From: Candidatus Thorarchaeota archaeon
Lineage (GTDB): Archaea > Asgardarchaeota > Thorarchaeia > Thorarchaeales > Thorarchaeaceae
DNA: 26,975 nt
Assembly (NCBI GenBank): GCA_003345595.1
Contig: PRDI01000085.1
Span: 1 to 26,975, forward strand
Reading direction: 5' to 3'
Shown: piece by piece, positions 2 to 14,372 of the stretch
How positions within the stretch are numbered: the first letter of the stretch is position 1
Layout of the letters: each line of letters starts with the position of its first letter
The notes under the pieces: generated by a model
Told to the model about the DNA's origin: nothing
What the model saw: only the letters and a program-made list of their open reading frames with translations
The model's database searches: none
Made by a program: the position numbers and the translations under genes

Positions 2-559
2 GGTGGTTTTATTGTGGTGTTTTCCAGCTACCTCGGGATAGCAATGACCGCTGCTCAGTCAATAGTGGGCGATGTGCCTCTGCGTAGAATGCTCCTCACA
101 CCGACAAACAGGCTCGAAGTGATTATCGCCAAAGTGGCAGCATACGTCATAATAGGTTTCTTCCAGTCTCTTCTTTTGGTTTCACTTTGGGTAATAGTCT
201 TCAGTCTGAATCTCAACACAAGCTTTGAGGTCCTTTTGATCATTATGAGCCTGACGTCTCTCACTGGGTCAACAACAGGCATCTTGATCTCTTCGATCGC
301 CTCGTCTAGACTTCAAGCCAACCAGATGTTCCTGTTCGTCATGTTCGCGACAATCATCTTGGCAGGATTCTTCGTCGATGTCGGGGTTCTGGATGAGTAC
401 ATGCCAATGAACCAAGGACTTAAGCTGCTGATTGACACAGCGTTCAAAGGGCTCTCACTGGTTGAGGTCCTAGCTCCAATACTGAAGTTACTTGCATTCT
501 CTGTGGGTGCTATCCTGATTGCCACGTTTATCTTTTCAAAGAAACCAACACTGGGGTAG
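2..559 (+). CDS. ABC-2 type transporter permease (5'-truncated by window edge)
   Basis: Frame is open from position 2 (GGFIVVFSSYLG...). It has several hydrophobic helices, the ABC-2 motif 'LRRMLLTPTNRLEVIIAK' and the 'LISSIASSRLQANQ' segment. It abuts an ABC ATPase gene. Confidence 0.9.
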   Translation, partial: GGFIVVFSSYLGIAMTAAQSIVGDVPLRRMLLTPTNRLEVIIAKVAAYVIIGFFQSLLLVSLWVIVFSLNLNTSFEVLLIIMSLTSLTGSTTGILISSIASSRLQANQMFLFVMFATIILAGFFVDVGVLDEYMPMNQGLKLLIDTAFKGLSLVEVLAPILKLLAFSVGAILIATFIFSKKPTLG

Positions 560-13500: not shown

Positions 13501-14372
13501 AGGAAACCATCGTATTCGGTACAGATCCCCTGTCGAATGACACTGACTCTGATATGCTCACAGACTATGAAGAGGTCATTACATACCATACAGATCCAAG
13601 GAACGCAGACACTGACTCAGACGAGCTGGATGACTACGATGAGGTCAAGGTCTACTTCACGAATCCTCGCGAGAGAGACACGGATCATGATCAGCTCATC
13701 GACTACATTGAGGTTACAAGCTCGCACACTGACCCTAGGAATAATGACACGGATCAGGACGGACTTACTGATGGGCAAGAACTCCTATCATACCATACGG
13801 ATCCCCTGAATCCAGACACAGATGGCGATGGGCTCTCTGACTACAACGAGATATTCGTGTATAGGACCAATCCCCTCTCATCTGATACGGACTCCGACGG
13901 CCTTCCAGACAGCATCGACTTTGATCCTCGTGTGCATTGGATCTACCCCGCCGGAGCCATCGGGCTAGTGCTTCTATCTGCAGTGGTTGTCCGCAGACGT
14001 TATCGACATGTGCACCGACCAGCAGAGCCAGTGACTGCGGCGGAGCCGACAAGCCCGGGACTTGAACCAGGCATGGAAGTCGCCGTCGAGTACAAAATCC
14101 GCGAGGGCAAGGCAGTCTTCGGCGTTGTCGTGCGAAACGGTTCGACTAGTCCGATGCAGAACGTTCAAATCGTTCTGGCGATACCTGACCTCACAGACAC
14201 CATAAAGAGTCAGAACATTGGGAATATTGATGCGGGCCTCATGGGTCTGACCGAGATTGACTTCGAACTTGAGCCAGGTGCTGCAGGCCAGCTCATTGGC
14301 ATGATCGAGTATGATTCAGTCATGGGTGAGCACCGTGTAGTCAATCTCAAGCCAGTGAAGATAACTGCATGA
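7581..14372 (+). CDS. Giant (2263 aa) single-pass cell-surface protein: signal peptide, FG-GAP/VCBS-like beta-propeller, ~75 TSP3-like Ca-binding repeats, TM, cytoplasmic Ig-like domain
   Basis: ATGA overlap with the upstream ATPase stop. Seven blade-like motifs (DVDGDTRDEL, DLNGDSIDEL, DFDLDGLGEI, NLAGSSQLEV, QVVAGGYDEF, DVAGLPEDQV, DLDGNGKAEY). D[TS]DxDGLxDxxE...T[DN]P repeats span aa ~400-2116. TM WIYPAGAIGLVLLSAVVV is followed by RRRYR. Confidence 0.9.
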   Translation: MKTLYVAVVTILALALIATQQPASDQFALQLDARPVHTPSTPAALTPFMTASVWSNTTGSQIVDLVMADVDGDTRDELAAITQNGTLFLFGESGMKLWQMDLYSSPYALEQAAADSDAKMELLIGTAKGLLLVCGNQTIAANVTLPDAVRAVAPVDLNGDSIDELSAGCDDHRVYAYALNATQLWNYTSNGRVRKILADDFDLDGLGEILSASDGRRVTLLESNGTAVFEELSPSTINAMGSGNLAGSSQLEVIIGTSMGTFQVYWRNGTPAFSVGVNSSISALSAGQVVAGGYDEFAVGTSGNELRVYNSSGSLMWNTTLGGQVSVVKLLDVAGLPEDQVLAGSDGGALSLYNASGYRANQTAVGGFTGVLDVGDLDGNGKAEYAAGTNTGLIMLYGLDYDRDGLADARESLIVGTLWDNPDTDGDRLTDGQEVLQYGTNPLKADSDSDGLSDFAEVITYGTDPNSVDSDADRLTDWQEVYLGTNPNRADTDGDQLTDYEENNITLTDPKVTDTNGNGINDAQDDNDGEGLTNIQEARLTYTNPNDVDSDNDGVTDYYDDQDADNLANGKEISVGTDPLDPDSDSDGLLDGDEVKIWKTNPLSADTDSDQLTDYEEAMIVHSNPKVADTDGDGLDDYAEYATYGTNSSDPDTDDDGLGDYEEIRIYSTNATNPDSDADGLLDGAEVNAWKTDPNSNDTDLDGLTDYAEVVTWHTNATLTDTDADGLGDGQEILTYHTNATSVDTDLDGIRDKDEVDRYPIFNATNAHTFNSTVNDYEWDYDSDGLSNGFEIYLTRTDPLLADTDGDGTPDDLEDSDLDGLDNYEELAAGTHPRRPDSDGDGVKDGDEVKVLDTDPNDKDTDDDSIGDYDEDFDGDRLSNGVELYITHTDPKNAHTHGTGQARDDYYDSDSDGLSNWFEVVMSRTDPVYNDTDDDGTLDAQEDPDNDRLDNIHEFLAGTDPLAADTDSDGLTDYEEVCEAYTNPLKSDSDDDGVLDGNDDQDNDGLTNLQEIRTYGTNATNWDTDGDMLRDGLEVGLGLNATDADTDNDGLYDGYSDLNHNGRWDTGEPGEDLDTDGVVDAGETDPANADTDGDGLNDGDEWIHGTNPLREDSDSDGLLDGQEVHSLGTNPLSNDTDLDMLSDYIEVNVTLTDPLTNMTHSGVLDYNWDSDSDGLTNGEEVYVYGTSPGDKDSDNDGLFDGFEINGFTVSFYNSSGMLETMMVVSDPLQLDSDGDNLTDYDEWVYGTDPRRKDTDRDGIDDHLEISYLFTNATRWSTFMNGTSDFLLDNDGDGLSNGLEIYGYNSNATSSDSDADGLPDGLEVYIAGSSPTDKDTDNDGLSDYLEYMVCKTNPRENDSDFDGLTDYYEVYTSLTDPNNWDSDVDGLSDSDEVNQYGTDPNMADSDSDGIGDKRELDLGTDPNSNDTDSDGLSDWQEWKMYRTDPTVGDSDSDGLNDGNEIGNGTDPMNPDSDFDSLTDGDEVNKYGTDPMKPDTDSDRLADNDEIFNSHTDPTNPDSNGNGIRDDLDDEDADGLNNFLEIYMYQTNCTLLDTDGDRLADGYEVFASHTDPRKADSDEDGLGDWDEMFRYSTDPNAVDTDGDDLTDGEEVLTYHTLPNKSDTDNDAVNDYDELKVFATDPLNPDSDFDGLTDGQELYVYNTDPLKEDSDSDDLLDSQEILLHTNPLNNDTDSDRLSDFEEANITLTNPLVYSTKGDGTSDSDWDMDNDTLTNWQEIRLTKTDPRNLDSDGDTIPDGADDEDRDLLTNHEECWLTKTDPRNKDSDGDGVSDLNDDEDGEGLTNGEECHTYFTDPLVKDTDGDRLSDYEEAIEYGTNPLVKDSDSDSLTDGDEVVDYGTDPLQNDTDSDLLSDWEELFLTDTDPLTNMTHPGVLDSFWDSDGDGLRNLEELRVYHTSPIDPDSDNDDLLDGEEIEAGTDPLDPDSDADLLLDGQEIRLYGTDPLSNDTDRDLLTDYQETIVFGTDPLSNDTDSDMLTDYEEVITYHTDPRNADTDSDELDDYDEVKVYFTNPRERDTDHDQLIDYIEVTSSHTDPRNNDTDQDGLTDGQELLSYHTDPLNPDTDGDGLSDYNEIFVYRTNPLSSDTDSDGLPDSIDFDPRVHWIYPAGAIGLVLLSAVVVRRRYRHVHRPAEPVTAAEPTSPGLEPGMEVAVEYKIREGKAVFGVVVRNGSTSPMQNVQIVLAIPDLTDTIKSQNIGNIDAGLMGLTEIDFELEPGAAGQLIGMIEYDSVMGEHRVVNLKPVKITA
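8778..13928 (+). repeat. Coding tandem repeat array, ~75 degenerate 12- and 22/23-aa acidic Ca-binding units (prokaryotic thrombospondin type-3-like)
   Basis: Manual parsing of the translation. Consensus D[TS]D[GS]DGL[TS]D[GY]EExxYgT[DN]Pxxx. The units are diverged at DNA level. Confidence 0.92.

Follow-up and report, generated by a model that had tools for sequence, protein, structure and literature searches.

GldA, GldF and GldG of Flavobacterium johnsoniae, like the wider 'ABC-2 plus ABC_transp_aux' operons, combine an ABC-2 permease and a DrrA/GldA-like ATPase of the ATP-binding cassette (ABC) type with a large extracytoplasmic GIFT-domain membrane protein. Wzt ATPases carry a glycan-binding domain, and OST48 acts as a non-catalytic subunit; together with GldA/F/G these are the precedents for the system considered here. 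An operon of comparable make-up was analyzed at the start of contig PRDI01000085.1 (assembly GCA_003345595.1) of a Candidatus Thorarchaeota archaeon, and the window, as the term is used below, is the whole stretch of 26,975 nucleotides (nt). The operon encodes an ABC-2 permease, two ABC ATPases (ATP1 and ATP2), a subtilase-like protein with a degenerate active site, a giant surface protein with a putative calcium-binding stalk, and a TPR protein. To our knowledge Thorarchaeota are known from metagenomes only. No published description of the operon was found in literature searches, in which subscription journals lay mostly outside the scope. The products are tentatively read here as a single machine of the cell envelope, an ABC-2 transporter with a GIFT-domain accessory protein; this is the best of the readings considered, although its chance is put slightly below even.

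Gene order and conservation across Asgard archaea

Five open reading frames on the + strand, at 2-559, 560-2251, 2256-6602, 6604-7584 and 7581-14372, are separated by gaps of 0, 4, 1 and -4 nt. They encode, in this order, the C-terminal 185 amino acids (aa) of the permease, the 563-aa ATP1, the 1448-aa membrane-anchored pseudo-subtilase, the 326-aa ATP2 (start at the ATG at 6604, with an alternative TTG upstream at 6589) and the 2263-aa giant protein. A preliminary description of this DNA had listed these five co-oriented genes with the same gaps, two different intact ABC ATPases flanking the subtilase gene, and two large proteins that each have a signal, one C-terminal transmembrane (TM) helix and a cytoplasmic part; the coordinates, the catalytic motifs, which are invariant across Asgard families, and hydropathy agree with it on all of these points. 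Its expectation that the operon continues upstream was not borne out. The window begins at the contig start of a genome that is 83% complete, so the permease gene is truncated and open at its 5' side. Three relatives are represented by longer contigs; there the operon starts with the permease (391-414 aa), upstream of which lies a divergent gene. This argues that nothing further of the operon precedes the permease and that the window lacks only about 206 permease codons. On the other side, the TPR gene (14457-15713, + strand) follows the giant gene after 84 nt in the same orientation. The operon is therefore counted as six genes, since TPR has one clear orthologue per genome, mostly directly behind the giant gene and only where the giant gene occurs.

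The order permease-ATP1-subtilase-ATP2-giant was found in 24 of 24 genomes of the Thorarchaeaceae and in one genome of a sister family, the sole exceptions being contigs that end inside the locus. As far as genomes were searched, the module is near-universal in Thorarchaeaceae and usually occupies a single locus. The core, consisting of the ABC-2 permease, the two ATPases and the subtilase-like protein, is also present, in differing gene orders, in six or more other Asgard families. Among 301 Asgard genomes, the N-terminal domain of ATP1 and the full-length C-terminal part of the subtilase were both detected in the same six families: both occur in 17 of 19 genomes of f12, in all genomes of f2 (1/1), f7 (5/5), f19 (6/6) and f30 (1/1), and in f1 in 73 and 72 of 76, respectively. 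The subtilase gene is inserted between the two ATPase genes in f1, f2 and f12, where f12 has the order permease-ATP1-subtilase-ATP2 and the giant gene is not there. In f19 (Freyarchaeum/Jordarchaeaceae) an ATP1-permease-ATP2 set stands back to back with a divergent subtilase gene in 6 of 6 genomes. A closed f24 genome of 4.36 Mb, with relatives under the names Promethearchaeia/Lokiarchaeia, has ATP2-permease-permease-ATP1-subtilase (1762 aa), and f9 has permease-permease-ATP1-subtilase with ATP2 divergent; taxon names of relatives were taken from protein-source names. Because the genomes are kin, the argument for linkage rests on these differing arrangements more than on the counts. The preliminary description had made its proposal hang on synteny in related genomes, and this is strongly supported, the order being kept and the core recurring across Asgard archaea. 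The giant and TPR genes were found only in f1 and f2. By this distribution the core appears old and Asgard-wide, and the stalk and the TPR protein a later Thorarchaeial addition.

Two further observations concern single genomes. After ATP2 in an f12 genome (G035), a gene at L022:2325-2849 (- strand) encodes a 174-aa P-loop protein (GNPAVGKTS) resembling Ras-type small GTPases, in the position that the giant gene occupies in Thorarchaeaceae. In genome G233, which has 7% contamination, the same locus was found with identical scores at G233:C9:131757-137835 and G233:C11:23741-29819; it is probably an assembly or binning duplicate and not a true second copy.

The pseudo-subtilase

Gene 3 (2256-6602, + strand) matches Peptidase_S8 (PF00082) with 148.5 bits (E 3e-43), and its S8 domain (aa 165-454, 2748-3617) is closest to Tk-SP (3afg, E 8.8e-44). 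In an alignment to an S-to-A mutant structure of Tk-SP, Asp174 and His217 of the catalytic set are kept, and the Ser and the oxyanion Asn are replaced by Ala414 and Asp311. Among 116 homologues the Ser position holds Thr in 59, Ala in 51 and Ser in only 6, and the oxyanion Asn is Asp in all 116; the catalytic Asp is kept in 114 and the His in 109. Representatives of eight Asgard families have A, S, A, A, L, A, G and G at the Ser position, with His changed to Arg in three. The earlier call of a pseudo-subtilase is thus confirmed and extended clade-wide: as far as active-site residues can tell, the protein is a true pseudo-enzyme and the whole ABC-linked clade is degenerate. An exhaustive profile search yielded at least about 40 full-length representative clusters of 1370-1780 aa. 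An export-and-cleavage system for the giant protein was considered and ruled out, since there is no active protease to do the cutting and the giant protein comes with a signal peptide of its own.

The same search recovered a group of catalytically intact cousins, 1240-1290 aa long and named Baldr-, Ran- and Helarchaeia, in which a zinc ribbon takes the place of the helical tail and the full D/H/N/S set with 'SGTSMA' is kept. Loss of catalysis thus coincides with the presence of the helical tail and with linkage to ABC-2 genes. Of the four cousin clusters examined, two lie directly behind an FtsX-type permease and an ABC ATPase, and the other two have no ABC neighbor. At L033:6133-11774 and L038:3069-8723, the genes for intact S8-GIFT-TM-zinc-ribbon proteins come directly after one for a 372-382-aa protein and one for an ABC ATPase of 231 aa; the 372-382-aa product is FtsX by Pfam in L033 (Baldrarchaeia) and has no Pfam match in L038 (a second 50%-identity cluster). 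Since two of the cousin clusters are placed behind FtsX-type ABC pairs, S8-GIFT proteins are linked with two different ABC types.

From the N-terminus, the pseudo-subtilase is made of a signal or signal-anchor, a pro-region, the dead S8 domain, a beta-supersandwich, a beta-sandwich, a GIFT domain, an Ig-like domain, a TM helix and a cytoplasmic helical hairpin. Hydropathy shows the N-terminal signal or signal-anchor and one TM near aa 1350-1375, followed by basic residues and a tail of ~75 aa. The predicted model of aa 461-1448 has a mean predicted local distance difference test score (pLDDT) of 80. Its supersandwich resembles the N-domains of GH15 glucoamylases and GH94 phosphorylases (VIA Z 22, root-mean-square deviation (rmsd) 2.8, 235 aligned), and further beta-sandwiches and then a disordered Gly/Ser linker precede the GIFT domain. 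The GATase-like alpha/beta GIFT domain itself (aa about 1032-1226, 5349-5933) is firmly assigned. Weak Pfam matches to GIFT, ABC_transp_aux, DUF4350 and MBTPS1_4th cluster near aa 1030-1220, and PF23355 and PF14258 are precomputed for most of the homologues. An eight-family profile of the non-catalytic part finds IFT52 at E 4.1e-11, and the domain superposes on the IFT52 structure with VIA Z 21.5, rmsd 2.1-2.4, 193-196 aligned and 19% identity; the analogy with GldA/F/G drawn in the preliminary description is therefore apt, as the subtilase carries a bona fide GIFT domain. Separate from this family, giant proteins of 3500-4800 aa with 6-8 separate GIFT matches were noticed (P0302, P0306, P0307, P0315, P0323).

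The TM helix and the tail (aa about 1349-1448, 6300-6599) were delimited by hydropathy and by the model, in which helices span 889-915, 926-951 and 957-985 (model numbering). A 'R..IPE ... IGE/IGG' pattern is recognizable in the tail in all eight Asgard families. Since the tail is as conserved as the folded ectodomains (identity about 0.64), it points to a cytoplasmic partner.

The permease and the two ATPases

The permease fragment (2-559, + strand) matches PF01061 (E 3e-12, 47 bits, cut-off 26.9) and PF12698 (E 1e-7, 31.8 bits, cut-off 31.6). Its full-length orthologue in a 96%-identical relative (L014:8825-10000, 391 aa) matches PF12698 at E 5.9e-22 with 78.7 bits, and hydropathy of that protein gives TM1, an extracellular domain of ~150 aa and then five TMs. 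The permease thus belongs to the ABC-2 type (type V exporter fold), with six TMs and with TM1 followed by a large loop. Thorarchaeia carry one permease gene, against two in Loki-type genomes. In the Loki-type and f9 loci, two different permeases stand beside the two ATPases (L031:5425-7835, L032:15748-18082), as in a fully asymmetric transporter.

ATP1 (560-2251, ABC_tran E 1.4e-24) has an N-terminal extension of ~255 aa ahead of a complete ABC ATPase, and is laid out as a pair of helix and beta-barrel modules (aa 24-235), a nucleotide-binding domain (NBD, aa about 255-470) and a C-terminal domain. ATP2 (6604-7584, ABC_tran E 8.9e-27) consists of an NBD, with ~33% identity to that of ATP1, and a C-terminal domain, and is devoid of the N-terminal modules. 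Walker A, Q-loop, signature, Walker B Glu and H-loop are invariant in 41 ATP1 sequences, and the same motifs are conserved in 10 ATP2 orthologues from nine families. As both ATPases keep all catalytic motifs, an active asymmetric heterodimer is suggested. Their nearest NCBIfam model is the drrA subfamily, with a score below cut-off, and the GldA equivalog (TIGR03522) is not reached, at 97 bits for ATP1 and 132.4 bits for ATP2 against a cut-off of 402.6.

The N-terminal extension of ATP1 was modeled as two tandem helix-plus-barrel modules (629-1264, cytoplasmic, pLDDT 79.5) and compared by Foldseek and VIA. Copy 1 (aa 23-128) superposes on residues 248-342 of TrmB, the C-terminal sugar-binding subdomain, with VIA Z 14.9, rmsd 1.8, 92 aligned and 21% identity, and the next unrelated match is at Z 7.8; Foldseek matches 3qph_A at E 1.6e-5 with probability 1.0. 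By sequence profile TrmB is found at E 0.15 only, and PF11495 is weak in the window and precomputed for most homologues. Copy 2 has the same secondary-structure pattern as copy 1, with weak matches only (Z about 5-6). A T-x-G ... D loop is invariant across families (T102, G104, D112). In the predicted structure, copy 1 is clearly a TrmB-type C-terminal subdomain. It shares the fold of the sugar-binding C-terminal subdomain of TrmB from Thermococcales, but ATP1 has neither the winged-helix DNA-binding domain nor the N-terminal subdomain of the effector domain, and its module is tandem-duplicated and fused to an ABC ATPase.

The giant protein and the TPR protein

The giant protein (7581-14372, + strand; Pfam, hydropathy and alignment) has a signal peptide, a predicted FG-GAP-type propeller head at aa about 50-400 and a TSP3 region at aa about 420-2100, followed by a TM at about aa 2118-2136, basic residues and a cytoplasmic domain of ~125 aa as read from hydropathy. 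About 60 TSP3-type DxDxDxxxD motifs and 46 N-glycosylation sequons were counted, and TSP3_bac matches with 309 bits in 13 stretches. Seven to eight FG-GAP-like repeats can be read directly in the head (aa 60-400), which Pfam matches to Beta-prop_BBS7 (29.9 bits, cut-off 27), Beta-prop_CGLA (27.1, cut-off 26.8) and Itfg2 (18.1, cut-off 27). The CglD model NF033765, for the Myxococcus gliding lipoprotein, scores 447.5 bits against a cut-off of 400, but this sum comes from 13 repeat stretches, of which the best covers only model positions 188-363 of 1124; orthology to CglD was rejected as repeat-driven.

In nearly all family genomes with a complete gene the giant protein is 2197-2297 aa long, and five orthologues are collinear and almost gap-free. 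Identity is about 60% in the stalk and 33-46% in the head, the least conserved part; the cytoplasmic domain, at 46-49% to three distant orthologues, lies below the stalk. Since the protein is collinear and of near-fixed length, unlike what is usual for repeat adhesins, a structural stalk is favored over a fast-evolving adhesin, and the earlier picture of an adhesive filament fits less well. The protein seems to serve a structural role for which its length is important, while its tip varies. As it is a Thorarchaeia-only addition to an older core, its distribution indicates that it cannot be the transporter's general raison d'être. Pfam gave only sub-threshold matches in five orthologous tails (Alpha_adaptinC2 E 0.2, DUF2393 E 0.007), from which no adaptin-like fold is claimed, and an atlas look-up of the tail was uninformative, with scores of only 0.79-0.80 to archaeal clusters.

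The 418-aa TPR protein (TPR families, E down to 6e-54) has no TM and no signal peptide and is predicted to be cytoplasmic. Each family genome has one clear orthologue. In at least 17 of 24 f1/f2 genomes its gene is co-oriented with the giant gene and immediately follows it, and most of the remaining genomes have it no more than about 5 kb away.

A proposed envelope machine and its alternatives

The reading as one machine is based on synteny, co-occurrence, linkage in varied orders, the GIFT domain, the conserved tail, and a dead site that is confined to the tailed clade. In this machine, the dead subtilase would take the place of GldG as a non-catalytic subunit on the outside of the transporter, held to the permease/ATPase body by its TM helix and tail. 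ATP hydrolysis by an ATP1-ATP2 heterodimer would move or present a carbohydrate-bearing envelope component, glycan or glycolipid, which the TrmB-like modules may recognize inside and the supersandwich and GIFT domain may receive outside. A glycan or glycolipid is the most likely cargo, on the ground that modules with carbohydrate-handling relatives are predicted on both sides of the membrane and that such compounds are known ABC-2 substrates. Thorarchaeia would later have acquired a calcium-stiffened stalk of fixed length with an integrin-like propeller head, and a cytoplasmic TPR protein, probably a binding partner of the cytoplasmic domain of the stalk, by which the module would have become part of a surface layer or contact apparatus. 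As a candidate for a major envelope machine, the locus would combine an outer subunit in the form of a dead protease of S1P/OST48-like build with an inner ATPase bearing a TrmB-type ligand module; the stalk may be one of the surface structures through which Asgard cells contact each other.

Several points weigh against this reading. A single membrane complex, like the assembly, shedding, movement or signalling put forward in the preliminary description, remains a proposal. In f7 (five genomes) and f30 the subtilase homologue is encoded away from the ABC genes, and related genomes are not independent, so that family counts overstate the number of independent observations. A predicted fold shared with TrmB, GH15-N or GIFT does not show sugar binding, the operon contains no glycosyltransferase or flippase gene, and the cargo is a candidate by analogy. 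Beyond f1/f2 the operon lacks the giant and TPR genes, and it is gene order alone that ties them to the complex.

The main rival is mechanotransmission as in FtsEX, MacB or LolCDE, in which nothing is transported: ATP hydrolysis would move the outer domain of the permease and thereby change the conformation of the dead subtilase, an adaptor controlling another surface protein, which in Thorarchaeia would be the giant stalk. The dead subtilase would then compare with EnvC, the dead LytM protein under FtsEX, a pair for which control of a pseudo-enzyme adaptor by an ABC module is established. The conserved cytoplasmic tail and the two intact ATPases fit this mechanism as well, and the intact cousins of Baldrarchaeia and of the second cluster stand directly behind an FtsX-family permease and an ABC ATPase. 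The permease of the present operon, however, is ABC-2 (type V), a class known for glycan and lipid export, and not of the FtsX/MacB type; half of the four cousin clusters are without an ABC neighbor, and the core operon encodes no target enzyme. Mechanotransmission is therefore regarded as unlikely, though well ahead of the explanations that follow. Alternatively, the giant protein would be an integrin-like outside-in receptor with a propeller head and a rigid calcium stalk, the TPR protein would read its tail, and the ABC module, whose TrmB-like domain would sense a metabolite, would act separately as a partner in the same regulon. The propeller matches and FG-GAP-like repeats agree with such a receptor, as do the moderately conserved cytoplasmic domain, the co-inheritance of the TPR gene with the giant gene only, and the poor conservation of the head, which is expected of a ligand-binding tip. 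The Thorarchaeaceae operon holds no kinase, cyclase or GTPase gene, the adaptin-appendage match of the tail is sub-threshold, and the older ABC/pseudo-subtilase core is left unexplained, so that the receptor is improbable as an account of the whole; as a reading of the giant and TPR proteins it is compatible with either transport or mechanotransmission.

Least credible, and very improbable in our estimate, is a coincidental operon, in which an ordinary ABC-2 efflux pump for a drug, ion or lipid shares a transcript with unrelated Sec-exported surface proteins. The ATPases do score best with the generic drrA model, below its cut-off, databases name them multidrug or ABC-2 ATPases, and the ABC genes of f7 stand without the subtilase. 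Coincidence does not account for the co-occurrence in the same families across 301 genomes, nor for a linkage kept through at least three gene orders, one of them divergent; GIFT proteins are known ABC-2 partners, and the specialized N-domain of ATP1 is present wherever the pseudo-subtilase is. The earlier opinion that the locus is not a plain drug exporter is upheld, since simple efflux fits poorly with co-inheritance across Asgard classes.

Neighboring genes

The divergent gene upstream of the permease encodes a cytoplasmic protein of 740-807 aa (L014:6146-8569, L016:6328-8550 and L018:6207-8567, all on the - strand), with 35-38% identity among three family genomes; the sister family is without it at the same place. 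It has no Pfam match, and its profile finds nothing among PDB sequences. Downstream in the window, a co-oriented set lies on the opposite strand (17023-23481, - strand). It encodes a GNAT acetyltransferase (184 aa), a D-Ala-D-Ala-ligase-like ATP-grasp enzyme (339 aa), a 484-aa protein without Pfam match and a 1106-aa protein with an N-terminal GNAT domain only, the latter two overlapping by 4 nt. This set could be a peptide or amino-acid ligation module.

Comparison with known systems

In the surface layer of Staphylothermus marinus, a stalk carries a bound subtilase (PMC5744192). Tetrabrachion and its STABLE subtilase resemble the present locus in pairing a long stalk glycoprotein with a subtilisin-family protein. 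STABLE, however, is proteolytically active, the stalk of tetrabrachion is formed by a coiled coil without sequence relation to the TSP3 calcium wire, and an ABC transporter has no part in the assembly. FtsEX-EnvC and other type VII mechanotransmitters share with the Asgard set an ABC-driven membrane module and a dead hydrolase-fold protein outside the membrane, and FtsX-type ABC pairs do precede the pseudo-subtilase's active cousins in two of the clusters examined; as the Asgard permease is ABC-2 and not FtsX, with no known downstream hydrolase, the analogy is functional only.

Site-1 protease (MBTPS1/S1P/SKI-1) has the same succession of signal, pro-region, S8 domain, post-catalytic beta and GATase-like domains, single TM and tail. 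The ectodomain of S1P-SPRING was the first Foldseek match of the non-catalytic part (9csd_A, E 1.8e-10; also 8uw8_A), with VIA Z 18.5-18.9 over about 310 residues and rmsd about 7 Å. With the non-catalytic profile, a stretch of ~130 residues of S1P that lies beyond its catalytic domain (599-734) is found at E 2.6e-4, and PF23090 reaches 17.9 bits on gene 3, below the cut-off of 27. The relation to S1P is likely at the level of architecture and marginal by sequence outside S8, and S8 itself is closest to Tk-SP. S1P differs in being an active protease, whereas the Asgard protein is missing both Ser and oxyanion Asn and carries an additional GH15-N-like supersandwich and an Ig domain; furthermore, S1P works with SPRING and not with an ABC transporter. 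No eukaryotic protein was recognized among the 150 matches listed in the exhaustive profile search, where about 10 clusters were named, all archaeal.

OST48/WBP1 likewise has a GIFT-like lumenal part, one TM, a short cytoplasmic tail and a non-catalytic scaffold role. Foldseek finds it at E 2e-9 with a TM-score (target) of 0.37-0.39, and VIA gives Z 17.3-18.3 over 286-290 residues (model 527-881) at rmsd about 14-15 Å; the domains match, but with so poor an overall superposition their arrangement does not. The non-catalytic profile has no sequence-level match to OST48, and no link to AglB/STT3 was seen at these loci. Asgard WBP1 homologues were described as restricted to Heimdallarchaeia, with the subtilase family unmentioned (PMC10307638). 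A bolder scheme would make the pseudo-subtilase and the active zinc-ribbon cousins the archaeal sister group of eukaryotic S1P. The S8, GATase/GIFT, TM and tail of S1P, and perhaps the GIFT domain of OST48, would have been inherited from Asgard outer subunits of ABC machines, and the Thorarchaeial FG-GAP/TSP3 stalk with TPR would be a prokaryotic integrin-like contact apparatus powered or serviced by such a machine. This scheme as a whole is distinctly unlikely, if somewhat less so than the receptor.

A close described counterpart is GldA/F/G, from which the Asgard set departs in several respects. It has two different ATPases, one with tandem TrmB-like modules, and both score far below the GldA equivalog cut-off. 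Its GIFT protein is fused to dead S8 and S1P-like domains, and has a signal peptide, one C-terminal TM and a helical tail, whereas GldG has two flanking TMs. The host is an archaeon and is not known to have a type IX secretion system (T9SS). We know of no described example of a pseudo-protease as an ABC accessory subunit. In conclusion, if the parts bind each other, the Asgard locus would be such a case, and it would place GIFT domains, such as the one found with GldA/F, in a function-bearing context.

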